Part shown: positions 13,590 to 38,088 of the stretch, in pieces | How positions within the stretch are numbered: the first letter of the stretch is position 1 | Layout of the letters: each line of letters starts with the position of its first letter | NCBI GenBank assembly: GCA_947165815.1 | Contig: CAMVBZ010000001.1 | Location: forward strand, 3,633 to 67,632 | Source of the DNA: an uncultured Clostridia bacterium | GTDB taxonomy: Bacteria > Bacillota > Clostridia > Christensenellales > CAG-917 | Length of the DNA: 64,000 nt | Direction: 5' to 3' | Made by a program: the position numbers and the translations under genes | Notes under the pieces: generated by a model | The model's input: only the letters and a program-made list of their open reading frames with translations | What the model was told of the DNA's origin: nothing | Databases searched by the model: none

Positions 13590-13601
13590 TATCTCTCTCC
13601 T

Positions 13602-14471: not shown

Positions 14472-14760
14472 ATCCTTGCCACCAGTCAGTGAATATTGTT
14501 ACGCCGACTTGTAACATGATTAACAACACGAAAATAAGCACAAATCCAACGATTGCATGTTGAAGTGCTTTCTTTGCATTCTCATGTTCTTGTGGTTCAC
14601 TGGCACGTGCGTACTTTACTCCAAGTAAAATACAGAAAATTGCACCTACTGCTCCTACTACTGCTAATAATGCAGGAACGAGAATCTTGCATACTTCAAG
14701 AATTGGGGCAATGATTTTGTTCATTTCCGCTGTTGTCATACTAATAAGTGTTAGCATCAT
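14461..14760 (-). CDS. Small two-TM protein, pilin-like (VirB2/TrbC-like) by size and topology
   Basis: 99 aa with two hydrophobic helices separated by a charged loop (KYARASEPQEHENAKK). AAGGAAG RBS. First gene after the conserved promoter element. Confidence 0.45.
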   Translation of the reverse strand: MMLTLISMTTAEMNKIIAPILEVCKILVPALLAVVGAVGAIFCILLGVKYARASEPQEHENAKKALQHAIVGFVLIFVLLIMLQVGVTIFTDWWQGYAY

Positions 14761-23800: not shown

Positions 23801-26800
23801 TCCATTGTTGTATGCTTGAACATCTTCGTTTGTGATTCTAATAGCGTAGAAATCACAATATTCCATCATCTTTATATATTCCGATGCTTTTTCTTTTGAT
23901 GAGAATACTAGTGGTTCAACTGAGTTGTTATAATAAGTACTTACACTACTACCCATACCAGTTCCAGTACGTGAATAATATCTTCCAGTACTTAATGTGA
24001 AGAGTTGATTCTTAAAGTTTACACCTACATTGAATATTGTATTATAGTTCTTTGTTGTGCTATTTTCATTTCCATTTGTTACATAGAAACGTTGTGTTTT
24101 GCTGTAATAGTTTTTGGACACATAGGTTGCAACCGTTTGGATTTCATAATATCCAGGTTCCAAAGCATTCAATGAAATATATGGATTTGTATTTCCATTT
24201 TCATTTATTACATAATTATCAAAATAAACTTTTTCTGGTGAAGCAACTGCACTACTATCGTTATCTATTAAAAGATTCTTTTTAAAGTTATTATCATAAT
24301 AAGCTACATTGCTTAATGAATAGCAATTTGGTCCATCAATATTTCCAGGTCTTCCTATCTCAATAGTAACTGGACCATTTGAAATATCTACAACATATGC
24401 ATTTTCTGCATAGAAAGTTACATTCTCAATAATTGGAAGTCTATCATCTGTGTCATCTGTAACAGTTACTCCTCCTATCTTAATATAAGGAGCAAATTGG
24501 TCACGCAAATCGAATGTTGTTTGTTTTTCTGAAGAAACTATTGTGGATATATTACCAACCAAATCTGTTCCAACAATACCAATGTAATAATCTCCATAAG
24601 ATTTTGTTCCTTCTTCTAATCCAACATGTTCTTCTGCTTTAAGAATAAATGAGATAGAGTTGTTTGCAAGATCTACAATTGTTTGGCAACTTTCACTTGG
24701 AACTTCTACAGTATCATCATCTGTTGTGCCATATATTAATAGCTTTTTAACTTCAAATTCTGAGTCTTCTACGTCAAATCCAGTCTCACGTAAATATACA
24801 ATAATATTGGCAAGTCCTGATAGTTCTTCAACATCTACAGTAATTTGTTTCTCTTGCAATTCTTCTGATGGAATTATATTAGAAAATACTGGGGCATCAT
24901 CATCTATCTTAATTGGCCCAAATCTACGGGATGTACTTACATCATCTGAATAAACTGATTTCGCATATACATGTAAATAATATGTTCCAGATACACCAGA
25001 TAATGTTGTAGTAAAGTTTCCATCCTCAGAATAATTAATATCAAAGTCTGTAAAATTCTTATATCTTAAGATATCATTATAAATGGATAGTTTCTCTGGC
25101 TGAGTAATATGCAATGTTTCATAAACTTTTGCAAGGTTGAAAGCTCTCTTTATAAGATATGTTTTTCCACCTATAACAGAAACATCTTGTGTCTTTACTA
25201 TTTCACCATTCTTGATTTCATAATATGTATTTATATCTGCATCAACTGGTGTTGCAACTACGTCATAATTTAAATCTGGAGATAATGACCAGAGATAATA
25301 AACACCTTGTAACATATTGGAACCAGTTGTTGTAATGTTTGCATCAAACTTCTTTACATATTCATTTATAATTTCTGCACTTTGATCAACAACCGGACTA
25401 CGGTTATCAAACTTTATTGTTAAATCTGAACGTAATTGTCTTGGAGAAATTCTATCCCCTTCTAGTGAAGACAATGTTGTGTAATTGCCACACATATTAT
25501 TGTTATTGGATATATTTCTTCCATAGTCTTTTAATTTATTGATGTTATTAAATCCTTCAATTTCTATGCTATTAATTGTTCCTGTAAGAGGTACATTATA
25601 ATCATCTGTTGCTGCGTTAGGATCAAACTCAAAAATTAATGTATCTGTACATAATCCATTTGAACCTGGACGAGAAATACAATCAAATGTTGCACGATAA
25701 TTGTTAAATCCACCACTACCATTAAATATTGTTCTTAATTTAATGTTCTCAATGTCAGCTGCTGATGCATTAATTGGTTCATTAAAACGAATACTTAAAC
25801 GAATTTTGTCGCCTTTTTGTATTGTACTCTTATCTAAATACCATCCCTTTATAAGAGGTGATGTGTCATCAACTACTATCCAATACAAATGCCAACCAGT
25901 CGTTTTACGCCAAAAGTTTGAATTGTTCTTAAATGTTTCATAAAGTGTCCCTGATGAAACTCTCATATAGTTTGCTTTAATATCTCTTCCATTTTTCTCA
26001 GACTCATCTTTAAATGAATCTGGAGATTTTGCAAATGATTCATTTCTATGGTCCATATCCTCATAATAAATTCCAGGATAAAGAGAATCACTCCAAATAC
26101 TATGGAATTCACCATGATAAAGGTGTGTGCCAGAAGTACTTCCATCATAGAGATCAAGGTCACACCAAGAAGATAAAGCTACACCTTTTTCGTCTAAGTG
26201 TAAATTTACACCAACGAAATAGTCTGCAAGTCCAGTTCTTTTATAATCTGCAGCAAAAGTTCCTCCTTGTTCTTCATCTGTATTAATTGCTTGACTAGCA
26301 GATAATGTTTGACCTGATTTATCTTCTGAATAAATATTTAATGAAGAAGACGATTGATGATATGATGTTAAATATCCACTGAGCATTTTAGTACTAAATG
26401 CATCTGTTGTACTATAATAGTGTTCTTTACCTGCTACTGAAGCAACATATACTCTTACAGATTTTGCGTTCTCTGCTATAGAGAAACCTTCATTCAATAC
26501 ATCATATATTTCAATATCAAAATATGGACGTACTCCATCAACGATAAATCTTTCTACATTTGTTTCAACTTTTACAGAAACATTATCGTAATAAATAGGC
26601 TCTTCGTTTCCAGCCTTAATAAAGCTAGAACGGCGTAATGTAACTATTGAATCTATTGGTGTATAGTCTACTCCCGCAACTGCTGTTCCATTTCTAGTGC
26701 GGACTCTTACTCTAACATCTTTTGATGGACTTCCATATGGAATACCACATACGATATCTGCAATTGCTGTACTGTGAACATACCCATTAGATTCTCTTAA

Positions 26801-26995
26801 TGTATCTTCTTGTACGAGATTTTCTTCATTAAAACTTATTGCCACCTTGTATTCACCACACCAGTCTGGATATGCACCATATGCGCTATCAACTGGGTTC
26901 TTAACAAACACCAATGTTACAACGAGGATTACTAAAAATACTGCAAACGTAGCAATTGTTAGTATTCTATTCTTATTTATTCTGTTTGCGTTCAT
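14837..26995 (-). CDS. Giant surface protein (4052 aa): N-terminal signal-anchor, two Calx-beta-like modules, many Ig-like modules, C-terminal TM anchor
   Basis: Uninterrupted 12159-nt ORF. N-terminal hydrophobic ILTIATFAVFLVILVVTLVFV. Calx-beta-like RNGTAVAGVDYTPIDSIVTL (aa about 101-120) and RDRSAIASLGDYDAYEGIVTL (aa about 1667-1687). Recurrent D-x-T/S-x-P-x-I domain-boundary motifs (DDTSPLI, DTTAPTI, DQTAPII, DKSAPTI). Big_5-like RLSIRFNEP and RLSVRFSEP. C-terminal TTIVIIVICLLIAIGFTIVLFL followed by RKRKKV. Confidence 0.9.
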   Translation of the reverse strand: MNANRINKNRILTIATFAVFLVILVVTLVFVKNPVDSAYGAYPDWCGEYKVAISFNEENLVQEDTLRESNGYVHSTAIADIVCGIPYGSPSKDVRVRVRTRNGTAVAGVDYTPIDSIVTLRRSSFIKAGNEEPIYYDNVSVKVETNVERFIVDGVRPYFDIEIYDVLNEGFSIAENAKSVRVYVASVAGKEHYYSTTDAFSTKMLSGYLTSYHQSSSSLNIYSEDKSGQTLSASQAINTDEEQGGTFAADYKRTGLADYFVGVNLHLDEKGVALSSWCDLDLYDGSTSGTHLYHGEFHSIWSDSLYPGIYYEDMDHRNESFAKSPDSFKDESEKNGRDIKANYMRVSSGTLYETFKNNSNFWRKTTGWHLYWIVVDDTSPLIKGWYLDKSTIQKGDKIRLSIRFNEPINASAADIENIKLRTIFNGSGGFNNYRATFDCISRPGSNGLCTDTLIFEFDPNAATDDYNVPLTGTINSIEIEGFNNINKLKDYGRNISNNNNMCGNYTTLSSLEGDRISPRQLRSDLTIKFDNRSPVVDQSAEIINEYVKKFDANITTTGSNMLQGVYYLWSLSPDLNYDVVATPVDADINTYYEIKNGEIVKTQDVSVIGGKTYLIKRAFNLAKVYETLHITQPEKLSIYNDILRYKNFTDFDINYSEDGNFTTTLSGVSGTYYLHVYAKSVYSDDVSTSRRFGPIKIDDDAPVFSNIIPSEELQEKQITVDVEELSGLANIIVYLRETGFDVEDSEFEVKKLLIYGTTDDDTVEVPSESCQTIVDLANNSISFILKAEEHVGLEEGTKSYGDYYIGIVGTDLVGNISTIVSSEKQTTFDLRDQFAPYIKIGGVTVTDDTDDRLPIIENVTFYAENAYVVDISNGPVTIEIGRPGNIDGPNCYSLSNVAYYDNNFKKNLLIDNDSSAVASPEKVYFDNYVINENGNTNPYISLNALEPGYYEIQTVATYVSKNYYSKTQRFYVTNGNENSTTKNYNTIFNVGVNFKNQLFTLSTGRYYSRTGTGMGSSVSTYYNNSVEPLVFSSKEKASEYIKMMEYCDFYAIRITNEDVQAYNNGTLITERGEVRRPEVGDVWIRYKAATWKFSTNQRDWAYYYYGDSSVNTTIDIGKISPKLASAVDQIVQLIIQKGSDLYLSSLSGVSDNGALYVDPVRIPDTYIATSSVGVPSTNLIYTGSLTNPLVYNFDKEVFYDKYNDLDNVKLVSAYKFIQSNSSKIYYAEAKYDIDKNLIFDITSYKDDLTLLKTSYLTQSATKSGIYFIRELDETGMHDYFVYVDLDCPTIHGTYSDIDAEHTMHYNQWWVKDNNDGDILYTSAFTLALLEDKPYSSDITYNDYHGYGLDADTYSYVAIFNITDGIKKLEASFSLHDLVSEDRTYEFPYGVFIVEIYDRAGNGFSMTISVARTDLTANIEVIKDDKIIFTIPDRIPTELNHVYVSRPGYAMEEVDFAAEAVVTTDIYGNESYSLIYTDSGRYEFMVIDKYGYTLSPSTDPDIGKVHTVADLTRVNPYENIKWVTRSEDRYVDLDPEDMTLFHSDTYYISSDDKLTFVLDSTTIYSYTFTGNVTYQAIERTVSGKKYVYVNVDSTERWSVRIYYTLYPNIAVTYNRIAKRAVVPAAIDLRPVEKDGAGIAQPDQTNRIVVYVGTQDELVDNVVVHLRTRDRSAIASLGDYDAYEGIVTLTPTNKEQMVVIQTHPSGFSTYNSSTHVYARRTFDFYIEYLEGNAEKGKSAIECACPGEQEINIVKKDDIQVFEPYTKGDKHGLPNVAMEYKESYNAESKYYDYSFDFSVNQTWLTTFVSTGLANLYVSSTMDISGNDQSDYPKLRLTLSDKSLNKQLFRVYLKDIDEDNESISLGLSYPGTNSSGETYDSTNALKIGEYRGNASSGKYFLVPVNSSGTIVLNIHEDEGMITRYYSSGGGAGVYSRDVYILPDRNINNVLGYSLLVDTTAPTIQSWHIDHGTIHLGDSLRLSVRFSEPVYILGKEPYINATVAGSMQTISFEYAGGAGTDTLYFEFDPSGYTSDINISAVSLSYIGNQSSICDYAYNVSRTNNKVGSVVLPRDTEWDNACSLDTRIPSITIDSSYYISAKPQRNASVPIEITKTAPGAIMEYSWTVESDAPAIYEKQLVLTSSEQKVMLEAKGFSGIYYLHIYMESVYGKVATMTYGPFLFDNSIPTFTGLTIEEATKGLKERNVVFYVNDEPRGEASSGVAQVYMYYLFKGEDVPQILKLYDINGDEKSNRITISENNRVVFLLTYEMLGIQKEEQKDVTLAFYAVDGIGNSASISTYTFYPTIVNFDARSEVEVEVSSSKEPFFDADSVPVYNIAGGSPTFDFSFSRQADEYDINHLYIGEKEIAEAKFEDYIEYTSDIDGVHIQFKTSVIGVVRINFKAISGTGENHTIQESSDVIFYLTNGTDKAETYNYLATGSGTLFINKVYMLNSSTYYYHNGEGVRQKNYNDTTRLMAFSSRDKAVEYVKYHEMLDLGIFEIRTTSQATSLNTGDGSYRKAALDASVTASVGQVWVRYKRATWDNATSSDAWVYYFLGTSSEIDPERLPNSLATAIGQVTDTIVDKGGYTYLTSGNDGLDANGSPYLDKNQIVLNRLTSFVTNAGAELRNAVVFEGDVDIYNSHVLPAGEDLVCSLVTTYNFTYGKFTKIFYTNQTDASGAPISREFKLLPEGSVFGSLNIDGGVYWIRECDENGVRDYKVYLDKSAPTINVSYQNAKGDSIDRELDAAVDGMTINGKVLTIKGFSSTATEIDTMSYIAVFKKNGVLLNVYRREDIPAAGIEVGEGQYYLEIADRSGNMYKVYVSLNSTPLEVKVIPEENRYVRITCNRDTSEIKLFEIYLDNKLIESNYSSSVTYYQSGIYSIRIEDWFGNTFYYDYELKRELPKISWFYQEDDNYIAYDGSQSCLKIQKSAEREYAIVTNKHLMFTFDTSEEYEYEFYDRSISTTAREFNGKTRVNINDAVDWKLTIRYARYPEIYIVYNCIMDQTAPIINVSARQDVVKYYDQKQIEEANQSNLTSSSPEYFVPDNIYFGVTKTISKAVRANSTIYSTLLTLSFDDKSICSEVEIYLDGVMIREYSESEGVNNITINRFGEYRIVARDTLGNQSEFTFANYDANKFEFTVDGNVKDIKLSPADAITIENDSYYYPADAYSYENMEFMYSGSGKIVIFVEKNGEKKYLAYESVNGALYEVAYRLIRLTDEEGNPLYDDYDNEILLYQQIYYATIVSNMAEVEAGKSFVLADENNAGVTISVRFDENNNVYYHVDAPAVGEATVSMRIVYNSDYQPYFAKVVMSAELPSITFEHIGDDVAEKQIIPQSTEQVIYLNGGFFVAETSFTNITEISVAYSLTREFSDYQTIYDLNNGYQQVIFTEEGFYSVVVVNIYGRVAEFLVTMSNELRAIITTDFIDDYSVQHAVVSGSTYKSNERVSIDVYTEWIEYNSIRDEIYLDGGIIMGIGGVCSVSWSTPGKYHLTIRDQFQNEIVIDFEIKDKPFEFKHDYLTGYNEDALRKEDGYSNKKLSINAEKMIADGIMQVSMLYDNEETVIFDILKDEGTPVTAERITDIIGSKGDGVYVLRMRNENGNVTNTTLHYMGNKTLKVSRLIRTSRDAENIEFAEGTDNKVYSNYSVTFETSAGIFEIRVDGDKADMPLTLRYPSDGEDTGEYKKNVTYVDEYGFKYTFEVNLIRKQLEIDLTKLMKIVEINEVKMTKDNVAIEFPDSVKCEYSLNGSELIPYSLGEKLTKDGSYRFYITDIAGNVQSAVVKKDTMVEFTFVYTGTDRIVENGSVIMQGSARFMAMNKDSAKINLAVLNGVEYDIASSAGFGDAGKWEFIIIDDIGNQAYYYFYAVPNAISKFDYESPYAYKITEVIFDAGDGILVSYANLVKHNVNKMNSTMLFDETGTYHVTVASTVSSAYFEFDVVIDKTPPQAKLIGAEDGSLTIDNVTLENCQIGDVIRVYKNGSLSEEIFVTSSSTKMPEIKEKGDYRIVITNAAGNEQVFEFTRQYTANVPTTIVIIVICLLIAIGFTIVLFLRKRKKV
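17966..22108 (-). repeat. Giant protein internal module B (aa about 1630-3010), diverged tandem copy of module A
   Basis: Collinear matches to module A. Pairs (B / A): LLVDTTAPTIQSWHIDHGTIHLGDSLRLSVRFSEP / WIVVDDTSPLIKGWYLDKSTIQKGDKIRLSIRFNEP; YYLHIYMESVY / YYLHVYAKSVY; FSSRDKAVEYVKY / FSSKEKASEYIKM; VWVRYKRATW / VWIRYKAATW; VYWIRECDENGVRDYKVYLD / IYFIRELDETGMHDYFVYVD. Confidence 0.75.
22121..26818 (-). repeat. Giant protein internal module A (aa about 60-1625)
   Basis: See module B. Both copies start with a Calx-beta-like segment and end with (W)xxRIYYxxYPxIxxxYN (ERWSVRIYYTLYPNIAVTYN / VDWKLTIRYARYPEIYIVYN). Confidence 0.75.
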
Positions 26996-26996
26996 T

Positions 26997-29507
26997 CTAT
27001 TTTCCTCCTCTGTTTATGTCCTGTCCCAACAAATCTTCAATTTTTGCGTCTGGATGACTTTGTTTGTACAATTTCCACATCCTTGTAATGTCTTGTACGG
27101 ACTGAGCATCTGTTTCCGCCTCTTGCTGGTTCTGTGCCTGATCCGCCGCTTGATTTGCTGCAACCCCTTCGACATAAGCTGCATATTCGGCATTTGATTT
27201 TTCTTCGGAATTAACAGCTTCTTGTTCTGTTTCAACACCGCCAGATGCTGAACCGCTATTGTTTCCACTAGTGCCTTCACTATCTGCCGTTTGACGTGAG
27301 GCCTTCTTCTCTGCTTTTGCTTGTGCGTCTTTTTCAACTAAATTGTTACGTATTGAAATATCATAGAATGCTTCTTTTTCATCAAAGAGTCTTTCATTAA
27401 GTTCTGATGTATCCATCTTTCCCACTTTGAAGAAAGGAACTTTGAAACTTGGTGTGAAATAAGTCATCAATGGATAATTACCAAATGTAACAACAATTGA
27501 GTGTCCTATATCACCTGGATGATTAAGTCTTTGTAATTCACTTGGATAAATAAGAGGTCTAACTTGCATTTGTGTTGTAACATTAATATCACGTGCACTA
27601 TTTGCACTTCCTGAAGAACTATTCGTTGCAACAGTAATGTTACCACAAAGCTCACTATACTCTTTACATGTGCCCATATCATTAGAACCAATGAACATCT
27701 TAATACCACAGTTACCTTTTACGATATCTGCAACCTTATCTCCATAGACGTTATTAAGCTGTGCATATGATTGTATAATCATATTGAACCAAATCTTTCT
27801 AGAACGTCCAACAGTAATCATCTTGTCAAACTTATCAATCTTTGGCATATTTGCAAATTCATCTAAGATGTAATAAACATTTCTTGGTAATGAAAGGTCT
27901 TCATATGTAGATGCAATCTTAATAAGTGCCTTATAGATAGATAACATAAAGATAGCTGCAAGATTGTAACGTGTATCTTTTTCATCTGGTATCTTAAGGA
28001 ATAATGCTGTTGGCTTTTCTGCCAAATTTTCTGGCACGAAATCACTTGCAGATGTTAATGCACAAATACCTGAGTCATTAAACATTGTAAGTTTTTCATA
28101 TACGATAGACATATAACTTGCTCTTGTAGATTCTGCAGCATCACATACTTGTTTACTTAAAGATAATGCCTTACTTAAAGGATTACGTCCTGCAAAATAT
28201 CTACGGAGTTCGTAATAGTCTTTATTACTATTTTGTAATATCTTAGCCAAATTGAAGAAATTGAACTTTTCCTTTACCATGTGTAGACGTGGATCTTCAC
28301 TATCCTCTAACATAGCAAGTAGAGTTGCAAGTGTTATTGCTCTTGCACCTTTCTCCCACATTGGGTCTTTTTCATTTTCAACAGGCACCAAAGCAGAAAC
28401 TAAGTCGTTTAAATCTTCATATACTTCGTCAAAAGTACGTTTCTTAAATACCTTAATTGCTGTCTTAAGTGATGCCATATTTGCATAAGCCTTGCCATCA
28501 AAGACATACCAAGACTCTGCTGCTAATAATTCAGATTCATCACTTGCTGGAATATATTTATCTTTTTCATATGGTTCTTTATGTAAAAATACATTATGTT
28601 GTGCATTTGCATATTCTTGATAATGATCCCAAATAGAATCTAATGGGTTCCAACGATATGATGAATATGTATCACGAAGGTCTATAACTTTAACGTCATA
28701 ACCACGTTCTTTTAAGAAACCACTATGAATGTTGAATAACTCACCTTTTGGGTCTGTCATAATCATTGAAGAACCAGCTGATGAAGCACCAAGTAATTGA
28801 ATCATAGGGTTAACGAATGTTGTTGTTTTACCACTACCAGTAGAACCGATAATGATTGAGTGACAAGGAGAGTTGAATAATACTTCCATATCCTTGTCTT
28901 TATTTGTAAGTTTTGCCATAACTGGTACGCCATCTTTGTCACTAGCGTTGAGTTGGCTATATTTTATTGGTTTGAATATCTTTTTCTTTTCATCGTCACT
29001 CATCCAACGAGAGTTTTCTAAGTTTGCTTCGATTTCTTTGAGTTTGCCTTTTCCACCAATTCCTGTGTAACGCATAAACTTCCATAAATCTCTATCTATA
29101 AAGCCAAGGTAAATTGCTGAAAAACCAACTAATATTGAGAATGTTATTGCATAAAAACGCCAATCCCAATGTAGCATACGGTTAAATACCCCAATCCAGT
29201 CAAAATTAGAGAAATTTGCACGATTGATTATCAATGCAAAAATAACTATTCCAAGGAAGAATGAAATCAATATCGCTGTAGATAAAGCAAAAATAACATC
29301 ATATGCTTTGCCTGAGAAAATCTTATGTGCAAAAATAACTATTCCTATATCTAGTAAAACAATAAAGAAGAAAGCAATATAACTAATTGCATTAATAATT
29401 GTCAAAGCATGTGTTGCTGCCAAAATAGGAAGCGATATCACAACTGACAAGATGAGAGCACCAGCTACTACAGATAATGCATAGATTAGGTTCTTTTTTA
29501 GTGCCAT
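26997..29507 (-). CDS. VirD4/TraG-type type IV coupling protein (T4CP)
   Basis: N-terminal TM helices. Walker A IIIGSTGSGKTTTF. YYILDEFANMPKI and VGRSRKIWFNMIIQSYAQLNNVYG motifs. GGAGGA RBS. Start overlaps the upstream gene by 10 nt, and the stop is 1 nt from the giant gene start. Confidence 0.8.
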   Translation of the reverse strand: MALKKNLIYALSVVAGALILSVVISLPILAATHALTIINAISYIAFFFIVLLDIGIVIFAHKIFSGKAYDVIFALSTAILISFFLGIVIFALIINRANFSNFDWIGVFNRMLHWDWRFYAITFSILVGFSAIYLGFIDRDLWKFMRYTGIGGKGKLKEIEANLENSRWMSDDEKKKIFKPIKYSQLNASDKDGVPVMAKLTNKDKDMEVLFNSPCHSIIIGSTGSGKTTTFVNPMIQLLGASSAGSSMIMTDPKGELFNIHSGFLKERGYDVKVIDLRDTYSSYRWNPLDSIWDHYQEYANAQHNVFLHKEPYEKDKYIPASDESELLAAESWYVFDGKAYANMASLKTAIKVFKKRTFDEVYEDLNDLVSALVPVENEKDPMWEKGARAITLATLLAMLEDSEDPRLHMVKEKFNFFNLAKILQNSNKDYYELRRYFAGRNPLSKALSLSKQVCDAAESTRASYMSIVYEKLTMFNDSGICALTSASDFVPENLAEKPTALFLKIPDEKDTRYNLAAIFMLSIYKALIKIASTYEDLSLPRNVYYILDEFANMPKIDKFDKMITVGRSRKIWFNMIIQSYAQLNNVYGDKVADIVKGNCGIKMFIGSNDMGTCKEYSELCGNITVATNSSSGSANSARDINVTTQMQVRPLIYPSELQRLNHPGDIGHSIVVTFGNYPLMTYFTPSFKVPFFKVGKMDTSELNERLFDEKEAFYDISIRNNLVEKDAQAKAEKKASRQTADSEGTSGNNSGSASGGVETEQEAVNSEEKSNAEYAAYVEGVAANQAADQAQNQQEAETDAQSVQDITRMWKLYKQSHPDAKIEDLLGQDINRGGK

Positions 29508-32500
29508 TCGTCATCTCCTCCTTGTTCATAATAGGAAATTATACTATCGTTAGCGATAAGAACATCTTCTTTACTTGCTATATTTAATAATGTATAACAC
29601 CCGTGTTGTACGGTTCCAATTTCATAAGTGTTATCATCCTCATAAACTACTTTTAATTCATAGTCATAAACAGAGAACCAATACACTTCAAATCCTTCTT
29701 CATCTATGAAAGGAGTATATATCAAGAAATCTCCAGATGATCCAATTGCCTTAACCTTTTCTACAGCAATATACTTATTAATTTTGGTGTCAGCCCAACC
29801 AGTGTAGTCATTTTCCTCAAATAAAACACATCTGCCATTAATATATACAGCTTCTCTACTTTCTGGTCCATGACCAGTAAAATCGATTGTATCAAAGGCG
29901 ACATTAATGTTGTTAATCCAAATTGAGATTGTGCCATCTGTATCTACAAACATATATGTCAAAATATTGTCTTTTGCTTTTCTTCTAATAACATATGGTA
30001 AAACATAGATTCCATTTGTTGTATAAATAGCGCCATCATAAATCAAACGATTTTCAACTGTGTCTGTATTTGCACTACGTTCATTATCCATAAATGCATT
30101 TGCCATCATATTAGCATATGTTGTAAGTGTGGCTACATCATCAAATCCTAAAAGATTTGCTATCATTTGACGATACTCATCAACTGTATGATTATTTCCC
30201 GTACCAGCAATTGCAAAGGATTTGTTTAATCCAATGACTGCACTATTGGTCAATAAATATTCACTTGTATATCCAAGATCGTTATTAGCGATGGTGTATA
30301 AATTTCCAGCTTGTTTGAAGAATCTTCTATAGTCAAGATAATTATCATTGCCTTGTCCAATCTCCCAGTAGTTTGCACCATTTTCTTCAATAGAATAATT
30401 AGAGAAGAATGTATGATACAAATCACTTAAGGAATCAAATCTAGCAACAACCTCATCTGCCATAACAGCAATATCGTTTCTATCTATTCTCTTTGTTATA
30501 GAACAATACTCACCATTTGCATATACGATTCCGCCAAGTGGATAACAATCACAAATTAAATAACATGCATTTTCTCTAAATATAGTGTATTCACCATATT
30601 GTTCGTTCTCGTTAGTATCTTTACAACTTACATTTGGATATGTAACCGTAAAAATATTGTGAGAAGCGTTCTGCAAATCCTTTATTAATTCTGCAACCTT
30701 TGAGTCCAAATCTTCTCTCATAATATAACCATCATCTTCAGCCAATAGACATCTGCCATAAATAGTTACCTCGTATTTATCTTCCGAAGATAAGACTGCA
30801 TCGCCAAAATTAGTAGCATTAAATGCATTACGTGCATCATTAATCCATACAGACATATTGCCAACTGTATCAACAAACACTAATGCAAATACCTTTTGTA
30901 AAGACAATTCGGTTCTAATTACGAATGGAAATATGAAATATCCATTTGTCGTATAAACAGCGCCGTCATACATCAAACGTGCTGATACAGATTCAACATT
31001 TGCATTTTTCTTATTTTGAGCAAGTTCTTGTGCCAATGTATTAGTATATGATGTGAATGTGGCTAAATCATTGAATCCAAACAACTTTGCAACTATCATA
31101 CGATATTGGTCTAAAGAATAATCGTTTCCACTATTGTTTATGGAAATAGTGAATGGATTATTCATACCGATAATTACACTTTCACTAAGGACATATTCAT
31201 TATTCTTTCCTAAATTACGACCTGCCAAAGCCATCAAGTTACTTGTAAATTCAAAGAAATCTTTATATAAATTGTAATAACGGTTAGTAACTCCCAATCT
31301 CCACTCATTAACAACATCTTCACCTATTGCATAATTTGAAATAAATAAATTATACAATTCAGTTACATAATCAAGATTTTCAGCAACACCAGCCTCCATT
31401 TGAGGATGTTCATCTCTATCTGTTCTATTTGTTAAACTAATCGAATCTCCATTTGCTTTAATTATTTTTGCAAAAATATCATCATCGCAGAATGTATATG
31501 TTGCTTGATTTGTAGAAATTTGATGTTCTGCCAAATCATATGATTCACTCTCCTCTGCACAATTTCCTGGAAGATTTTCGACAAATCTATATACTGCACG
31601 AGTTCCTTGAGTAAGTTTTTCTGTTGCAGCAGATTCTTCCAAAAATGTAAGATCTTTATCACTTGTTATTACATGTGTAACGTCTGTTCCAGATTCATCA
31701 ACCACTTTAACTATTGGAGATAATCTTGTCAAATAGACTTCACTTGTCAAACAACGTCCTTCCAGTTTAACCTCTTGTTGTGGAGAGTTGAATAAATTAA
31801 ATAATGAATCTACATCACTTATTAAAACGCCCATATCCTTAAAAATTGAAAGAGAGGATTCTGTTCTTTGTAATCTTGCAACGATAAAAATTATTGCTTC
31901 TGATCTTTGATTTCCTTCATTATCAACCCAACTAAAAGTATATGGGAACGCAATTACTGAATCACGCTCACCTTTATCATAAACTCCGCCTTTAACGGCA
32001 CATGTAAGTTGTCCATTAACGTTATTTATGGATGTTCCGGAATTATCTCTCATCATGTTACTACAAAATTCATCAATTTTCTGGACAACTTTACCTTCTC
32101 CAAAGAAATCGCTTGAGTTTTCAAAGCCAAAAATATGTGCTAGCACATCAATATAATCAGAATGTGTATGTTCTTTATGTTTTGATATATATCTCCAATC
32201 TTCTGAATCCTCTAGCAAAACATACGCAGCATTATTCAACTCAAATGTCCAAGGAGTGTCTTCACCAGATGTTGGTCTCAATGCTTCATTTGAAGCATTC
32301 AACAATGATGTAAAAATATCATCATCAACGTCAAGCCAACTTTCTGTACCAACTATATAACGCTTGTACTGAAGTCTAAAATTGCGATACTCCTCTGCAA
32401 GTGTATGGAAATCTTCTCTCTTAGATGGTTGTATATATCCCTGTTCCGAATTGGTTAAAGCAGTTTCTCCTTTCTTATTATATTCATAGAATACATTACA

Positions 32501-34327
32501 ATCACAGAATTGCATTGTAATGCCACCGAATGTGAATTCCTCCAAATTTTCATCACAAGACCCACCTTCATGGAAGTCCATAAATGCGCCTGATGCATTG
32601 CCTGTCTCTGGGTTTACCCAATCATCATCAAAAACCTTTAAATCCCAATTTGTGAAACTATTCACCGTTGATGCACGTATAAGTGTATTAACTTTGGTAA
32701 GCCCAGTATAGTTGCCACTTCCATCGAATTCTATGACAACAACATAGTATCCATCTTCAAGAATCTTTTCTCCGTATCCCTCTCCTTCACCATCAAACGA
32801 AGAAAGATCATCTATCCAACCGTCAACTTTTTTATACTTTACATCTTTGACTTTAAGACCGTCTGGTATATTTTGAGGACGATATTCATTAGCTGCACGA
32901 TATGGATCAAAATAGAATACCTTTAAATGCTTAGCTCTTTCTTCAGCTGATTGTTCTTCTGGATGTTGGAATATATAGTTCCAATATTCTGTAGGGAAAT
33001 CATCTTTGATACTTCTTTGAGAAATGAAACGACGGCGTTCAAAAGTAATCATATCCATTTTGGCTGGAACTGGGTCAATAATAATCGTTGCAGTCATAGA
33101 AGCAGGATTCTTAAAGTTTGGATTATTACTTTCAAAAGATGCTATCGCTACATAAGTCCCTGCATTTTTTGCTACATTGCCACTATAGGACACTGATAAT
33201 CCCATAGGCAAAGTTCCTTCTATCTCTATAGTCTTTTCTGTACCATCATAAGAAGTCTTTGTTCCATTAAATTGAACACCCGACATATCATACTCTGCTT
33301 TTTCAATTGTTAAAGTTGCATACATATTTGGAATTGGTTCATAATTGACTATATCATCTATATCAAATTTAGCTGTTGCATTATATACGCCCACGTCCAC
33401 GTGTTCATTATTAATATAAGTAACAGAAACTCCTAAAGGAAGATTACCTTCAAGTTCAATCTTTTGAACAGTACGATCATACTGAACCCATTTGCTATCA
33501 AAACTTAAATCTGAGACATCTATCTCTGCTTGCTTTATTCTAAGAGTTGCAATCTTTGGTTCAACTACATTATAGTTGACATTATCACCAGAGAATGATG
33601 CTTGTATTGTATATATTCCTGCATTTTTAGCAGAGTTTCCTTGTTCTTCTCTGCCTCCAAATTTTGTTATTGTATAATCTACATATAATCCAGTAGGCAA
33701 AGTTCCATCAATGGATATCTCGTGTATGTCACCATCATAGACTTCTTCTTTATTTTCAAAGTTGATATGTGATAAATCATAAGTTGCTTTTCTAATAACT
33801 ACATTTGCAGTCATTTCCTTCATCTCATAAGCATCTTTTCTTAAAATTGCAGTTGCTTGATATGTTCCTGCTGTACGGAAACGATTTGTTGTAGGATATG
33901 TTACTGTTGTGCCTTCTGGAACATTCTTTACCTCTACTGTATGGAATTCTCCATCATATACAATGTCTACGTCATTAAATTCTGCTCCAGCAAAAACATT
34001 TCTTCTAACATTTACATTAATTGTTGTTGTCTTGTCTTTAAAGTAAACAGTTAATACGTGTTCGCCTTCTTGGAATAATAAAATACGGTCTTTTGCCTCT
34101 AACATATCTGCACTTAATGTAGATTGTTCTGTTTTGCCTGAGTCGAATGTTGCTGTAACGGTATAGTCTGAGTAATTGAACTCACCCATTCTTACATCTA
34201 TAGTATCGGGAGTGACACTTATTTCTTTTACATTATCGATATTACATGCGAATAGCACTACGCATGTTAGTACAAATGTTGCCAACAACATGGCATATAA
34301 TAGTATTTTCTTTCCTTTTTTAATCAT
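29498..34327 (-). CDS. Large surface lipoprotein (1609 aa) with four MBG-like repeats and three Cys-containing ~300-aa repeats
   Basis: Lipobox LFAC. Four units with the YDG...AG(T/I)Y signature (VYDGEFHTVEV...RTAGTYQA; VYDGDIHEISI...KNAGIYTI; QYDRTVQKIEL...DVGVYNA; SYDGTEKTIEI...KNAGTYVA). Three C-terminal units each end in GRC(L/V). Confidence 0.8.
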   Translation of the reverse strand: MIKKGKKILLYAMLLATFVLTCVVLFACNIDNVKEISVTPDTIDVRMGEFNYSDYTVTATFDSGKTEQSTLSADMLEAKDRILLFQEGEHVLTVYFKDKTTTINVNVRRNVFAGAEFNDVDIVYDGEFHTVEVKNVPEGTTVTYPTTNRFRTAGTYQATAILRKDAYEMKEMTANVVIRKATYDLSHINFENKEEVYDGDIHEISIDGTLPTGLYVDYTITKFGGREEQGNSAKNAGIYTIQASFSGDNVNYNVVEPKIATLRIKQAEIDVSDLSFDSKWVQYDRTVQKIELEGNLPLGVSVTYINNEHVDVGVYNATAKFDIDDIVNYEPIPNMYATLTIEKAEYDMSGVQFNGTKTSYDGTEKTIEIEGTLPMGLSVSYSGNVAKNAGTYVAIASFESNNPNFKNPASMTATIIIDPVPAKMDMITFERRRFISQRSIKDDFPTEYWNYIFQHPEEQSAEERAKHLKVFYFDPYRAANEYRPQNIPDGLKVKDVKYKKVDGWIDDLSSFDGEGEGYGEKILEDGYYVVVIEFDGSGNYTGLTKVNTLIRASTVNSFTNWDLKVFDDDWVNPETGNASGAFMDFHEGGSCDENLEEFTFGGITMQFCDCNVFYEYNKKGETALTNSEQGYIQPSKREDFHTLAEEYRNFRLQYKRYIVGTESWLDVDDDIFTSLLNASNEALRPTSGEDTPWTFELNNAAYVLLEDSEDWRYISKHKEHTHSDYIDVLAHIFGFENSSDFFGEGKVVQKIDEFCSNMMRDNSGTSINNVNGQLTCAVKGGVYDKGERDSVIAFPYTFSWVDNEGNQRSEAIIFIVARLQRTESSLSIFKDMGVLISDVDSLFNLFNSPQQEVKLEGRCLTSEVYLTRLSPIVKVVDESGTDVTHVITSDKDLTFLEESAATEKLTQGTRAVYRFVENLPGNCAEESESYDLAEHQISTNQATYTFCDDDIFAKIIKANGDSISLTNRTDRDEHPQMEAGVAENLDYVTELYNLFISNYAIGEDVVNEWRLGVTNRYYNLYKDFFEFTSNLMALAGRNLGKNNEYVLSESVIIGMNNPFTISINNSGNDYSLDQYRMIVAKLFGFNDLATFTSYTNTLAQELAQNKKNANVESVSARLMYDGAVYTTNGYFIFPFVIRTELSLQKVFALVFVDTVGNMSVWINDARNAFNATNFGDAVLSSEDKYEVTIYGRCLLAEDDGYIMREDLDSKVAELIKDLQNASHNIFTVTYPNVSCKDTNENEQYGEYTIFRENACYLICDCYPLGGIVYANGEYCSITKRIDRNDIAVMADEVVARFDSLSDLYHTFFSNYSIEENGANYWEIGQGNDNYLDYRRFFKQAGNLYTIANNDLGYTSEYLLTNSAVIGLNKSFAIAGTGNNHTVDEYRQMIANLLGFDDVATLTTYANMMANAFMDNERSANTDTVENRLIYDGAIYTTNGIYVLPYVIRRKAKDNILTYMFVDTDGTISIWINNINVAFDTIDFTGHGPESREAVYINGRCVLFEENDYTGWADTKINKYIAVEKVKAIGSSGDFLIYTPFIDEEGFEVYWFSVYDYELKVVYEDDNTYEIGTVQHGCYTLLNIASKEDVLIANDSIISYYEQGGDDEWH
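29828..32542 (-). repeat. Three tandem ~300-330-aa protein repeat units in the 1609-aa lipoprotein
   Basis: Units 2 and 3 align clearly: IIGMNNPFTISINNSGNDYSLDQYRMIVAKLFGFNDLATFTSYTNTLA / VIGLNKSFAIAGTGNNHTVDEYRQMIANLLGFDDVATLTTYANMMA, and RLMYDGAVYTTNGYFIFPFVIR / RLIYDGAIYTTNGIYVLPYVIR. Unit 1 is more diverged. Each unit has an FCDC/FCDDD/ICDC patch and ends at GRC (aa 857-859, 1191-1193, 1498-1500). Confidence 0.7.
33077..34006 (-). repeat. Four tandem MBG-like domain repeats (aa about 108-417)
   Basis: Period of about 75-80 aa with conserved YDG, G(T/N)LP.G and AG.Y positions. Confidence 0.7.
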
Positions 34328-34344: not shown

Positions 34345-35139
34345 TTACATTCTATATTTTTTTGGCCCAGTCAAATCTGACCATGAGGCATAATTTGTCA
34401 TATATGCGCCCTGGTAGGCGTTAATTGCTTTTATATCACCATTAAGGTAGTCATAATAATCACAATCAATTTTTTTAGGATCTATTGCATATGCATTATG
34501 AGATTTGATGATAATATCTGAACCACCTATTGCATTCAAAGTCTTAACAAGCGTTGAGAATGCTTGAGATAAATATTGATCACCACCAACACCTACATCA
34601 TCAAAAATGTAAGCAATTATCTCAGAACGGCTACATGCAGCTCCCTTTTTGTCTATTAAATAAGCAAGTAATTCTTTTGCTTTTGCTCTTGGGAAATGAA
34701 CAGGCATTCCATCACAGAAAAACTCGAAGTTTCCAAATGTTTGAGCATAGAACTTTTTGCCCTTTCCCATATCTTTTTCTGGATAAAGAAGATTATCAAA
34801 TTGTTCACGAAGTTGGTTTTCATCAACTGGTTTTAGCAAGTAACCACTTGCATGCAATCTAATAGCATCCATCATATATTCGGAGTACCCTGTTACAAAC
34901 ACTATGTTTGTATGTGGATAAATAACCTTAACTCTATGAGCAAATTGTATGCCTGTCATATCATACATTCTAACATCACTAAAAATGATATCTGGTTTCA
35001 TTGCACCACTTTCCAAAGATTGAAGAGCCATTATAGGATCATGGAATAGATAAAGGTCCGCATCTGGCTTAACCTTCTTAATGCAATCTGCCAATGAATT
35101 TAATGCTAATGTCTCATCATCAACTGCTAAGATAATCAT
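34345..35139 (-). CDS. Two-component response regulator: REC domain plus SARP/OmpR-like winged-helix output
   Basis: REC motifs MIILAVDDE, IIFSDVRMYDMTG, IVFVTGY. C-terminal FGNFEFFCDGMPVHFPRAKAKELLAYLIDKKGAACSRSEIIAYIF is typical of wHTH (SARP/OmpR-like) DNA-binding domains. ATGA overlap with the upstream gene. Confidence 0.8.
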   Translation of the reverse strand: MIILAVDDETLALNSLADCIKKVKPDADLYLFHDPIMALQSLESGAMKPDIIFSDVRMYDMTGIQFAHRVKVIYPHTNIVFVTGYSEYMMDAIRLHASGYLLKPVDENQLREQFDNLLYPEKDMGKGKKFYAQTFGNFEFFCDGMPVHFPRAKAKELLAYLIDKKGAACSRSEIIAYIFDDVGVGGDQYLSQAFSTLVKTLNAIGGSDIIIKSHNAYAIDPKKIDCDYYDYLNGDIKAINAYQGAYMTNYASWSDLTGPKKYRM

Positions 35140-36431
35140 TTTTTCAAACTCCTTATATAGAGTTCATCTTGTACTGGTTGTACTTGACGCATTGTCATAC
35201 CAATATAATCTTCTCCTATTTCATCTATATCTACACTAATACGACTTACTTTATCACTATTTTCTATTCCATCTTCATCATATTGTTTCTTTCCTGTTGC
35301 AAGACCACGATAGAAAATTTCTCTATTGAGTGCCATTTCGGAAAGAAGATATCTGCTGGAATTGGCAAGTCCTTTTTTTGTTAAGAACTGTTTTGTGAGA
35401 TATATATTCTTGTCTTTTTGTGCTTTTTTAAGTGCAAGATTACAAATAGCATCCGCTTCATCCTTACTTAAATCTTGTAAATCATGATCTTTGAGGTATT
35501 GCTCTCTATTTTTAATATCATCTTCCTCAAACATCTCTGGGACTCTCTTGTAATCACGTTTTATTAATTGTTCATTGCGTGTTTTATAATAGTATTCACT
35601 TATTACACCTTCTCTAAAAGCATCTTGTATTGCACTACCTCTTGCATAAGTTGCCTTTAAAAGAACATTCTCTGCTCTAAGTTTCTTGTTTTCTATTTCC
35701 TCACGTTCTTTTCCTGAAACAAAACCTAATCTTACATCCAACTCATGAATATCTTTTAGAAGTTTTTGAGCATCTTTATTGAAACTTTCATCCTCGTTGC
35801 GAATAGCAGACCACTTATCTGATACATGAGGTTTACGAAGATACTCATGACAATCCAAATCTATTGAAGATAAGTCTTCTTCAAAATGTATTTCACTAAA
35901 TGCATCTTGCTTTCTATCGTTTGCAATTAAAGTTGCTTGTACGAAAGCTTCAGGTTGCTTAACGAACCACTCTGCTTGTCCATTGTCACTTGAATTTGTG
36001 TTTGAATCTGACAATAAAAGAACTTGAGCTGTTTGGCAATGAAGCATTTTTAAAACTGCCTTAGACAAGTCGTCATTATGTAATTCTGTAGTTTCTGTTG
36101 CATCTTCAACTGTTGAGATTTCATCAAGGTCTAAAATACACTCTTTCACATTTTTAATGTGATTCTTAGATAAAACGTTATTTTTTACGATTAATTCTAA
36201 CTCATCAAAAGGAAGATCATCATCACCTTCATGATATAAAGAAAGAGCGCCCATTTGCTTTGAATTAAGCAACATCATACGCTCTAAATTATTCAATTCT
36301 TTTGTTATACGTACTCTAACGGTATCACGTCTTAATTTCTCTGTAAAAGATCCTTCAGACATATTTTGAGATGCTTGGTTTCCACCAATTTCATCCCAGA
36401 TTTTTTGGTATAAATCTTTTAAAACTCCCAT
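35136..36431 (-). CDS. Soluble protein of unknown function (431 aa from the corrected start), co-transcribed with the response regulator
   Basis: I moved the start to ATG 36431 (MGVLKDLYQ) because GGAGAG lies 7 nt upstream, and the longest-ORF start at 36470 falls inside the conserved promoter element. Shares a roughly 80-aa module with the 1142-aa protein. Confidence 0.6.
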   Translation of the reverse strand: MGVLKDLYQKIWDEIGGNQASQNMSEGSFTEKLRRDTVRVRITKELNNLERMMLLNSKQMGALSLYHEGDDDLPFDELELIVKNNVLSKNHIKNVKECILDLDEISTVEDATETTELHNDDLSKAVLKMLHCQTAQVLLLSDSNTNSSDNGQAEWFVKQPEAFVQATLIANDRKQDAFSEIHFEEDLSSIDLDCHEYLRKPHVSDKWSAIRNEDESFNKDAQKLLKDIHELDVRLGFVSGKEREEIENKKLRAENVLLKATYARGSAIQDAFREGVISEYYYKTRNEQLIKRDYKRVPEMFEEDDIKNREQYLKDHDLQDLSKDEADAICNLALKKAQKDKNIYLTKQFLTKKGLANSSRYLLSEMALNREIFYRGLATGKKQYDEDGIENSDKVSRISVDIDEIGEDYIGMTMRQVQPVQDELYIRSLKK

Positions 36432-36537: not shown

Positions 36538-37833
36538 TTATTCTGAAATTGGGAAACGAATAGTGGCCGTTGTACCATAACCTATTTTACTTTCTATTTC
36601 AAGTTTTCCATTAACCATTGTTTCAACACGGTTTCTAACATTTTCAATACCAATATGGGTAGAATCTCTTGGTTCATTAACCTCAAATCCTACACCATTA
36701 TCTATTATTCTAATGACTATGTCATTATCCTCACGTCTTGTTGCAATCTTAATTGTACCACCTTCACGCTTAACAGATATACCATGTTTAACTGCATTTT
36801 CTGCCAATATTTGGACACTCATAGCAGGAAGATCAAAATCTTTTTCTTGTATATCGTATTCAACTTGCAAACTCTTTCCAAAACGTATTTTTTCAAGTCT
36901 TAAATAAACTTGTACATTCTCAAATTCTTGTTCAAAAGAAATGAGAGTGTTTTCATTAATTGTATTTAGTGTCTGACGAAGATATTTAGCAAAGTCCCCT
37001 ATTGCTTTCTTTGTTTTATCTGGGTTGTCTGGAAGAGCTTGTATAGCCGTTAGTGCATTGTAAATAAAATGTGGAGAAACTTGACTTCTAAATAGTCTCT
37101 CTCTTGTTTTTTCTGTTTCTAATTTTGCTTCCTCTTTTGCGATTCTTTCTTTCAAAAGTATGTCAGTTGCTTTTGATTGTTCTCCAAACAAAAGAACTAC
37201 AATTGACATAATAGTTATAGCATCCACAAAGAACAACTGTGGAATAAGACATTGTAAAATTAAGCCAATTAGAAGCAATGAAAAATAGATATAGAAAGTA
37301 ACCATATCTTGTTTGCACAAACTTTTTCTATTAATAACAACCAATGCTGCAATTGCTAACCATAATACTAATTCAACAACTGGAATTAGGTAGAAGGCGA
37401 TGCCACGAACATAGTGATTATTTGCGTTTACAGAATATAAATATCCTGCAAATAGATTTCCTACAAGCAGTGCAAGCACGACCCCTTGTATAGCAAAAAC
37501 AATAATGGTCCAAACCTTATAAAACTTTGAGTCACTTTTAATTAAATGAATCAAATAAAGGTTGAGGAATGCTATGCATAAACAACCTGCCATTATTCCT
37601 ATAAACCTTGAGGCTATAATCATCGCTCTAGAAGATTCTAACCCCATATCGTTAAATACATTAAACAATCCGTTAAAGAGAGCAGAAACGCCCAATGATG
37701 CCATAATAAATGCTAAATCACGTTTTTCTTGTTTGCTAACGTGAGGGAAAGTGAGCATACAAATAGAACCAGCAATTGCTAATAACAATGCAACAACCTC
37801 AAAAGAGATGTTTATTGTGGCATATACCCCCAT
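36538..37833 (-). CDS. Sensor histidine kinase, LytS/YehU type (His_kinase PF06580-like plus HATPase_c), six-TM sensor
   Basis: H-box region FRSQVSPHFIYNALTAI. N-box ILAENAVKHGI. G-boxes IIDNGVGF and GIENVRNRV...GYGTTATIRFP. GGAGGG RBS. Confidence 0.85.
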   Translation of the reverse strand: MGVYATINISFEVVALLLAIAGSICMLTFPHVSKQEKRDLAFIMASLGVSALFNGLFNVFNDMGLESSRAMIIASRFIGIMAGCLCIAFLNLYLIHLIKSDSKFYKVWTIIVFAIQGVVLALLVGNLFAGYLYSVNANNHYVRGIAFYLIPVVELVLWLAIAALVVINRKSLCKQDMVTFYIYFSLLLIGLILQCLIPQLFFVDAITIMSIVVLLFGEQSKATDILLKERIAKEEAKLETEKTRERLFRSQVSPHFIYNALTAIQALPDNPDKTKKAIGDFAKYLRQTLNTINENTLISFEQEFENVQVYLRLEKIRFGKSLQVEYDIQEKDFDLPAMSVQILAENAVKHGISVKREGGTIKIATRREDNDIVIRIIDNGVGFEVNEPRDSTHIGIENVRNRVETMVNGKLEIESKIGYGTTATIRFPISE

Positions 37834-37895: not shown

Positions 37896-37926
37896 AAAAA
37901 AAACGAACCCTCTAAAAGAGTTCGTA
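37896..37926 (-). terminator. Rho-independent terminator after tRNA-Val
   Basis: Minus-strand ACGAACTCT-TTT-AGAGGGTTCGT imperfect hairpin followed by T8. Confidence 0.6.
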
Positions 37927-37929
37927 CTA

Positions 37930-38006
37930 TGGTGCGGGATATAAGACTTGAACTTATGACCTCTACGATGTCAACGTAGCGCTCTAACCAACTGAGCTAA
38001 TCTCGC
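37930..38006 (-). tRNA. tRNA-Val (anticodon GAC), CCA encoded
   Basis: Manual cloverleaf: acceptor GCGAGAT/ATCCCGC (A4:C69 mismatch), D arm GCTC-AGTTGGTTA-GAGC, anticodon arm CTACG-TTGACAT-CGTAG, T arm ATAAG-TTCAAGT-CTTAT, discriminator A plus CCA. 77 nt. Confidence 0.85.
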
Positions 38007-38017
38007 AAAGCAAAGTT

Positions 38018-38046
38018 ATAATACACCATTTTTTTTGGATTATCAA
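38018..38046 (-). promoter_or_regulatory. Sigma70-like promoter for tRNA-Val
   Basis: Minus-strand TTGATA (38041-38046), 17-nt spacer, TATTAT (38018-38023), about 11 nt upstream of the tRNA 5' end. Confidence 0.55.
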
Positions 38047-38060
38047 GTATTTTATATATA

Positions 38061-38088
38061 AAAGAAACCCCTTGGCTTAACCAAGAGG
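38061..38088 (-). terminator. Hairpin terminator (second of two) between the ABC operon and the tRNA promoter
   Basis: Minus-strand CCTCTTGG-TTAAG-CCAAGGGG followed by TTTCTTTTAT. Confidence 0.5.

Follow-up and report, generated by a model that had tools for sequence, protein, structure and literature searches.

Paralogous all-α proteins with a shared C-terminal portion in a Clostridia type IV secretion locus

What unites two soluble proteins that are encoded in the same type IV secretion system (T4SS) block and match no known domain? The question is raised by a 64,000-nucleotide stretch of contig CAMVBZ010000001.1 from an uncultured Clostridia bacterium (positions 3,633–67,632; hereafter the window), whose T4SS block encodes Protein A (431 aa) and Protein B (1142 aa). 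An initial annotation had aligned about 80 residues of the two proteins by eye and had suggested that this shared module could dock to the coupling protein or form a common interaction surface. The comparison presented here shows that A and B belong as paralogues to a single undescribed family of all-α proteins and are homologous over ~310 residues and an additional C-terminal tail of ~35 residues. The family and both shared elements appear to be undescribed in the libraries and literature searched. Functionally, the tail-bearing members may be protein substrates of a relaxase-less T4SS, a tentative reading that is weighed below against its rivals.

Homology between Proteins A and B

The genes of Protein A (35136..36431) and Protein B (6011..9439) are both located on the minus strand, with the stop codon included in the coordinates. 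The similarity between the two proteins is real and is not compositional, because four comparisons agree. BLASTP with compositional matrix adjustment aligns A residues 256–368 (numbered from the longest open reading frame, ORF) with B residues 834–950 (E = 2e-10), and 30% of the 117 aligned residues are identical. In Smith–Waterman alignments, none of 2000 residue shuffles reaches the observed score; the z-score is 17 for the 120-aa module and 14 for the 80-aa stretch of the initial annotation. The module is found by tblastn exactly twice in the window, and the matches are reciprocal, as all 33 A homologues match the B module and the B homologues match that of A. A module-only profile comparison of A with B yields E = 3e-17. 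Both regions are helical and rich in charged residues (K, E and D), which would favour a chance or compositional resemblance, but that explanation is refuted, with practically no probability left to it, by the composition-corrected E-value, the shuffles, the reciprocal matches, a profile E-value of 2.2e-35 and a column-reversed control at 0.13. The shared module is thus borne out, and its alignment stays significant after compositional correction.

The homology extends far beyond the 80 residues first recognized. A profile of 20 A-family sequences aligns with five B-type units over A residues 49–353 and B residues 623–957 (probability 98.6, E = 1.2e-15), and the A family aligns over 311 columns (the E-value of 2.2e-35 given above) with 90 segments that consist of a pre-module and a module and were taken from relatives found by a hidden Markov model search. 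With shallow profiles, the region upstream of the module in the N-terminal part of A reached just P = 0.017 against B when taken alone. When the module columns were removed on both sides, hhalign still aligned the pre-module of A (residues 43–230) with that of B (probability 98.1, E = 6.7e-14), whereas the column-reversed control for this alignment gave the E-value of 0.13. The AlphaFold2 (AF2) models are confident over the corresponding regions, with predicted local distance difference test (pLDDT) values of ~90 at A residues 80–355 and of 80–95 at B residues 370–950, and have low-confidence tails. A residues 77–352 and B residues 663–947 share a succession of helices that ends in three helices of ~30 residues each, and a region of short helices and loops, whose loop region is conserved, is inserted between the last two of these. 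Since the pre-module regions align without the module and the AF2 models agree, A corresponds to the C-terminal third of a B unit that occurs as a protein of its own, and the two proteins are not otherwise different, as had been supposed.

In A, the homologous region is composed of a pre-module (35724..36305; residues 43–236) and a module (35358..35705; residues 243–358), the latter spanning the initially annotated positions 35370–35609. The corresponding elements of B are a pre-module (6962..7576; residues ~622–826) with a matching AF2 helix pattern and a module (6569..6940; residues 834–957) that spans positions 6590–6844 of the initial alignment. B additionally contains a core domain (7577..8344; residues 366–621) without counterpart in A, in which E412, K416, Y418, N479, R484, N503 and R577 are invariant. 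The module itself has invariant G, Y, R, Q, L, P and F residues and is the best-conserved portion of the A family; across loci, it is the best-conserved part of B as well.

The module is rare. A search of 1.84 billion representative proteins with the module profile returned 69 clusters, 40 of them at E ≤ 1e-10, and nearly all 69 belong to one family by mapping with unit profiles. This rarity and the invariant residues rule out a generic coiled coil. Family members carry 1–6 copies of a unit that is either long (~950 aa; core domain, pre-module and module) or short (~300–400 aa; pre-module and module). Protein A consists of one short unit and a tail, and Protein B consists of one long unit and a 186-aa tail that is acidic and N/I-rich. 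P0037, for instance, combines three long and three short units in 4367 aa; P0038 and P0041 consist of short units in array, and P0036 contains the core domain twice, with no module and no T4SS nearby. The low-complexity tail of B dominated a homologue search with the whole protein, which returned 3 matches only.

Unit number varies within the immediate relatives of B. Its 90%-identity cluster comprises three sequences of 1142 aa (one unit, from three assemblies) and two of 3141 and 3148 aa (three units; P0128 and P0131), and the window B corresponds to residues 1958–3148 of the three-unit form at 90% identity. On a contig that encodes a three-unit B (locus L015, JAEEGL015557969.1), the T4SS proteins are 99–100% identical to those of the window; therefore, unit number differs among very close strains.

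Neither A nor B matches an entry in Pfam, NCBIfam, PHROGs or PADLOC. The maximum Kyte–Doolittle 19-residue mean is 1.0 for A and 0.8 for B, so neither protein has a hydrophobic segment, and no signal peptide or transmembrane segment is found in either, in agreement with the initial annotation. A Pfam scan of 14 module sequences (E ≤ 1) yielded nothing beyond noise. Compared with the sequences of PDB chains at E ≤ 10, the module profile retrieved just 2myv_A and 9ip6_C and no BID entry. Foldseek searches with the full-length AF2 models of A and B against the PDB, and of B against BFVD, returned no meaningful template-modelling score and no BID structure. The module is also absent from IMG/VR (2.9 million contigs) and from PLSDB (72,556 plasmids).

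Protein A starts at the ATG at position 36431, which is preceded by a GGAGAG Shine–Dalgarno site and is the start used in all 33 of 33 homologues; the longest ORF extends to position 36470. The A homologues begin with MG(A/V)LKDLYQ. An N-myristoylation-type reading of this MG start was rejected on account of the Asp residue at position 6.

The C-terminal tail motif and the loci of the family

The second shared element is located at the C-terminus. The tail element of A (35139..35243; residues 397–431) reads SRISVDIDE...RSLKK and has low pLDDT values, and that of B (6014..6121; residues 1107–1142) reads GEQIYINIDDEED...NKDDLKK. The terminal sequences are SRISVDIDEIGEDYIGMTMRQVQPVQDELYIRSLKK in A and GEQIYINIDDEEDIKINGDILNVGKDKELNKDDLKK in B. 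Both tails are acidic and predicted to be disordered, carry the motif I-x-[IV]-D-[LI]-D-[DE], which usually follows (G)E(R/K), and end in ...LKK. The motif is positioned 34 residues from the C-terminus in A and 33 residues in B, where two looser copies are seen by eye further upstream in the tail.

The position of the motif is locked to the end of the protein. Of 105 family proteins, 71 match a loose regular expression for the motif within their last 75 residues. The distance to the end is 32–35 residues for most of them, among which are 32 of the 36 A-family members and 34 of the 69 in the B family. Per 1000 residues, the motif occurs 10.7 times in the last 75 residues and 0.12 times elsewhere, a difference of ~90-fold. 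The spacing between module and motif is variable (tails of 56–348 residues), whereas the spacing between motif and end is fixed. The six-frame translation of the window contains 204 stop-to-stop segments with a length of 60 aa or more, and A and B are the only two of these with the motif 25–45 residues before the stop. The mean net charge of residues −40 to −7 is −7.8 in the A family and −5.0 in the B family, and that of the last six residues is +3.2 and +0.6, respectively.

The end of the A gene overlaps with the start of the response regulator gene by 4 bp (ATGA), and an identical overlap is present in loci L001 and L003/L004. The AAGGAG Shine–Dalgarno site of the regulator is embedded in the A codons for IRSLKK (35136–35160). 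LKK as an artefact of this site was considered and rejected: the ending is retained in B and its relatives, whose genes do not overlap with one downstream, and is therefore conserved at the protein level.

Related loci were found in metagenome-assembled genomes from the rumen, such as RUG767 and a roe-deer rumen bin, and family genes occupy three slots in them. In the slot after VirB4, B of the window is replaced by P0035 and a second multi-unit gene in L005, by P0037 in L013, by P0077 in L014 and by the family genes of L015 and L016. The slot between the kinase and regulator genes contains A in more than 15 loci (39–100% identity), and the order kinase–A–regulator is kept in all A-family loci. 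On the low-GC (guanine–cytosine) contig L007, this slot is taken by two full-length B-type proteins instead of A. In two contigs (L012/L018 and L020), the third slot, upstream of the kinase gene, holds an extra B-like gene. The most divergent A-family locus (L003/L004) also encodes, just upstream of the kinase (8024–8311), a 95-aa protein with a weak match to the competence-regulator domain TfoX_N.

On every sufficiently long contig with a tail-bearing member, the family gene adjoins T4SS or kinase–regulator genes of the same locus type, and only the ends of such loci encode tail-bearing members. In the contexts visible, the tail motif, rather than the module, tracks the T4SS locus, with counts that are small and phylogenetically non-independent. 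The response regulator is the most persistent neighbour across the whole family. The locus proteins diverge at different rates: identity to the window copy in homologous loci is 72–86% for the coupling protein, VirB4 and the response regulator, 39–63% for Protein A, 40–49% for the surface proteins (adhesins) and 30–43% for Protein B.

Two tail-less members, P0074 (L008) and P0083 (L032), share a different gene order, in which the family gene is followed by an unrelated ~150-aa gene, a response regulator gene and a gene for a ~420-aa protein. Their regulators are 35% identical to that of the window and 53% identical to each other. The acidic ~150-aa protein (4669–5109 in L008; 2945–3412 in L032) is encoded by a gene that overlaps the regulator start, and its two copies are 31% identical. 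The possibility that these overlapping genes are relatives of A was rejected by hhalign (E = 0.24–0.45).

The T4SS block

The block is wholly on the minus strand and encodes, in order, a histidine kinase, A, a response regulator, a 1609-aa protein, a VirD4-type coupling protein, a 4052-aa protein, a pilin-like protein, a lipoprotein, a VirB6-like protein, VirB4 and B. A is thus the second gene, with the kinase on one side and the regulator on the other, and not the first gene of the operon, as had been proposed; the placement of B as the last gene, immediately downstream of VirB4, is upheld. Housekeeping genes flank the block.

The membrane histidine kinase (36538..37833) contains His_kinase PF06580 and HATPase_c domains, and the response regulator (34345..35139) combines a REC domain with a winged helix that matches Trans_reg_C weakly. 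Between the upstream gene for an ABC-transporter permease and the kinase gene (37900–38240, minus strand), there are three terminator-like hairpins and one promoter-like site, and no terminator-like site is found between the kinase and the regulator. This arrangement is consistent with a block transcript that begins at the kinase gene.

The coupling protein (26997..29507) matches T4SS-DNA_transf (5.7e-49), TraG-D_C and TrwB_AAD_bind. In its C-terminal part (26997–27400), a conserved peptide, …DI(T/M)(R/K)MWKLYKQSHPDAKIEDLFGQ…, follows a variable acidic linker of ~100 residues (compared in L001, L003, L010 and L012). Such a pattern of variable linker and conserved end peptide is typical of a partner-binding tail, and it is a matter of speculation that the conserved end (…MWKLYKQSHPDAKIEDL…) is a candidate partner surface.

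The VirB4-type ATPase (9500..12160) matches P-loop_TraG (2.6e-20) and has N-terminal hydrophobic segments; its nearest plasmid relatives are the Spiroplasma 'Mbov_0397 ICE ATPases' at ~30% identity. The VirB6-like protein, a putative 289-aa lipoprotein and a 99-aa pilin-like protein are encoded at 12183..14760. The NCBIfam models matched by the VirB6-like and pilin-like proteins were constructed for ICEs of Mycoplasma, although the present host is a rumen Clostridia. The VirB6-like protein belongs to the MMCAP2_0566/Mbov_0396 family (NF045848, 148 bits at a cutoff of 90; NF045889, 127 bits at a cutoff of 70), and its gene (12183–13589) also encodes a ~130-residue C-terminal extension rich in Gly, Asp, Asn and Lys outside the span of the NCBIfam model (residues 9–312). 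The pilin-like protein scores slightly below the cutoff of 40 for the Mbov_0395 family (NF045849, 39.2 bits), and the homologous gene in L005 and L013 carries PF18895.

The two giant proteins of 1609 and 4052 aa (14837..34327) are encoded on either side of the coupling protein gene, and each has a hydrophobic N-terminal segment; the 4052-aa protein (14837–26995) has an additional C-terminal hydrophobic anchor. By eye, the latter looks internally duplicated, as '...SPLIKGWYLDKSTIQKGDKIRLSIRFNEPI' and '...APTIQSWHIDHGTIHLGDSLRLSVRFSEPV' recur ~1900 residues apart, and Pfam gives only weak hints of Calx-beta and DUF7336. No relaxase, VirB1, VirB8 or integrase was found in Pfam and NCBIfam scans of the block ORFs and of nearly all window ORFs of at least 150 aa, five ORFs at 58.6–63 kb being unscanned. 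At the left edge of the window (18–2259), a 300-aa ORF is followed by that of a 448-aa membrane protein whose C-terminal part resembles a histidine-kinase ATPase, with no Pfam match at E ≤ 0.001.

Candidate functions and related systems

The reading that we tentatively place first, and consider quite possible, is that the tail-bearing members of the A/B family are protein substrates of this relaxase-less T4SS and that their shared C-terminal portion is a recognition signal for the coupling protein. A and B would be exported by the T4SS of the locus, and the coupling protein would read a signal composed of the folded helical module, the variable acidic linker, the position-locked motif and the basic end, following the logic of the BID-plus-tail signals of Bartonella and the XVIPCD-plus-tail signals of Xanthomonas. 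Several features are substrate-like: A and B have neither signal peptide nor transmembrane segment, no relaxase, VirB1 or VirB8 was found in the locus, and the module is absent from plasmids and viral contigs. Evolution also counts for the substrate reading, since A and B diverge as fast as the adhesins, unit number varies between near-identical strains and the module is the best-conserved part, and so do the homology of A and B, their common architecture and the linkage of the family genes to VirB4 and to the kinase–regulator pair. The proposed docking to the coupling protein gains support from the tail motif at its fixed distance from the C-terminus.

A number of observations weigh against this reading. 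Linkage of the module to T4SS loci is tight in the clade of the window, but distant relatives have no T4SS nearby. Among tail-less members, P0074 and P0083 have no T4SS gene in view, P0069 adjoins a hybrid kinase–regulator gene with no T4SS within 10 kb, and P0101, on a short contig, has neither a T4SS nor a regulator neighbour; P0077 follows VirB4 yet lacks the motif. Modules also occur internally, at the end of every unit. The module is therefore integral to the unit fold and not a T4SS-specific, appended signal, although internal copies are known for BID, and the docking role that the initial annotation gave to the module itself is weakened. The tail is net acidic, whereas the signals of known T4SS substrates are mainly basic, and proteins of 3000–4400 aa would be unusually large substrates. 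The invariant kinase–A–regulator order and the ATGA overlap point to a two-component role. Finally, the hosts are uncultured organisms.

A regulatory role of the family is a serious rival, if in our estimate a rather unlikely one. Here, the family or its module would be an unexported cytoplasmic partner of the two-component system, binding its regulator or kinase and modulating expression of the T4SS, with the B-type proteins acting as multivalent scaffolds or sinks. The position of A within the kinase–regulator pair in every A-family locus, with the ATGA overlap and the regulator's Shine–Dalgarno site inside A, argues for this role, as do the two B-type proteins in the same slot of L007, the location of P0074 and P0083 upstream of a homologous regulator with no T4SS in view and the hybrid kinase–regulator gene beside P0069. 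The regulatory role leaves unexplained why copies also follow VirB4 or precede the kinase, why units are expanded 1- to 6-fold, why the divergence is as fast as that of surface proteins and why the motif is fixed relative to the C-terminus. Moreover, the gene that overlaps the regulator in L008 and L032 is the unrelated ~150-aa gene and not a family member.

The substrate and regulatory readings combine naturally in a model of A as a secretion-coupled regulator. FlgM and ExsE are small regulators of this kind, which are retained until the machine is active, share the export signal of the substrates and are encoded with the regulator that they control. The position and tail of A would fit this pattern; A is not homologous to FlgM or ExsE and is far larger, so the analogy is inferential. 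A, translationally coupled to the response regulator, may report secretion activity to it in addition to being exported. The full proposal, which we hold to be doubtful, is that the locus is a dedicated protein-translocating, relaxase-less and chromosomal T4SS of a Gram-positive-type bacterium under two-component control, that the A/B family is the first substrate family identified for it and is recognized by a new two-part signal at the C-terminus (helical module plus I-x-V-D-L-D-E ... LKK tail), and that A, which has this signal as well, would be an exported anti-activator coupling T4SS expression to secretion by FlgM/ExsE logic.

Plain paralogy is an unlikely alternative. The module would then be the best-conserved structural part of a helical fold with another role in the T4SS, such as an exported structural or cell-wall-spanning component or an enzyme. 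This would suit a module that closes every repeat unit, internal ones included, and AF2 helices that run long, confident and continuous from the pre-module into the module. The invariant polar residues of the core domain (E, K, Y, N and R) suggest a putative active or binding site, and P0036 has the core domain without a module and outside any T4SS. Two points speak against paralogy alone and are not decisive: the tail element is conserved apart from the fold and position-locked to the C-terminus, and the module is more conserved than the rest in both families, which suggests a specific constraint.

A role in DNA processing, in which the B-type proteins would substitute for the relaxase or serve as pilot proteins and the module and tail would be a translocation signal, is highly improbable. 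No relaxase was detected in the block or among the scanned window ORFs, and Tyr, Arg, Lys and Glu residues are invariant in the core domain; relaxases are themselves T4SS substrates with internal or C-terminal signals (PMC6509941). However, Pfam and NCBIfam reveal no similarity to relaxase families, the models have no PDB relative, and a relaxase domain in tandem, in up to three copies, would be odd. The surroundings are housekeeping genes with no integrase, and the family is absent from the 72,556 plasmids.

Known two-part signals resemble the shared portion of A and B in architecture. BID is a ~100-aa helical bundle that, with a charged tail, forms the two-part T4SS signal of the Bartonella Beps, of alphaproteobacterial toxins and of relaxases (PMC6509941). 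In both cases, a helical domain of ~100–120 aa and a short C-terminal tail are common to diverse proteins encoded beside a VirB/VirD4-type system, and several copies can occur in one protein, the terminal BID copy being the best conserved (PMC6509941). Unlike BID, to which Pfam scans of A, B and the 14 modules and the PDB sequence search show no sequence similarity, the A/B module is part of a larger repeated unit, the A/B tail is acidic and basic only at its extreme end, and the T4SS is of Gram-positive type. XVIPCD is the folded C-terminal region of ~120 aa of the Xanthomonadales X-Tfe effectors, with a tail most commonly of 34 residues and a basic extremity, and serves to recognize the effectors of one T4SS (PMC8740702). 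A conserved C-terminal region of ~120 aa with a flexible tail is likewise present in A and B, whose motif lies 32–35 residues from the ...LKK end. The XVIPCD fold is α-α-β-β-β and its tail Gln-rich, whereas A and B are predicted to be all-α with an Asp/Glu-rich tail, and the module invariants G, Y, R, Q, L, P and F differ from the XVIPCD motifs (PMC8740702). Adjacent immunity genes and recognisable toxin domains are also absent from the A/B loci. The resemblance would thus be a functional analogy only, as membership in BID fails on sequence and membership in XVIPCD fails on both sequence and fold.

The machinery itself has known counterparts. The apparatus encoded around A and B corresponds to the minimal T4SS of Mollicutes integrative and conjugative elements (ICEs; PMC12857230): it includes VirD4, VirB4, a VirB6-like protein (MMCAP2_0566/Mbov_0396), a pilin-like one (Mbov_0395/PF18895) and a lipoprotein, and neither VirB1 nor VirB8 nor a relaxase was found. 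In lacking a relaxase, it is similar to the co-opted monoderm-type T4SS of Patescibacteria (PMC12102498). In contrast to these systems, the A/B locus is chromosomal in rumen Clostridia, begins with a two-component system and has the 1609-aa and 4052-aa surface proteins interleaved. The A/B family is undescribed in those systems, and VirB4 is only ~30% identical to its Spiroplasma relatives. The polyvalent proteins that Iyer et al. reportedly described in J Bacteriol in 2017 are said to be giant soluble proteins of conjugative elements, with many modules and genes next to those of a T4SS, through which they have been proposed to be delivered. Those proteins have recognisable enzymatic domains, whereas the A/B family has one repeated unit and no Pfam match.

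Whether Gram-positive bacteria possess a T4SS dedicated to effector translocation is a long-standing question, as nearly all functions known for their T4SSs are in DNA transfer (2025 review, PMC12857230). The locus described here offers a relaxase-less, minimal T4SS of Mollicutes-ICE type, a family of candidate substrates with hardly any occurrence elsewhere and a short, position-locked C-terminal motif. This motif can be fused, mutated and used as a search key for more such candidates in Firmicutes of the gut and rumen. Under the substrate reading, the A/B tail and module would represent a two-part C-terminal T4SS signal where no signal of this kind has been known. Under the regulatory reading, the family would add a new, third component to a two-component system that governs a secretion machine.

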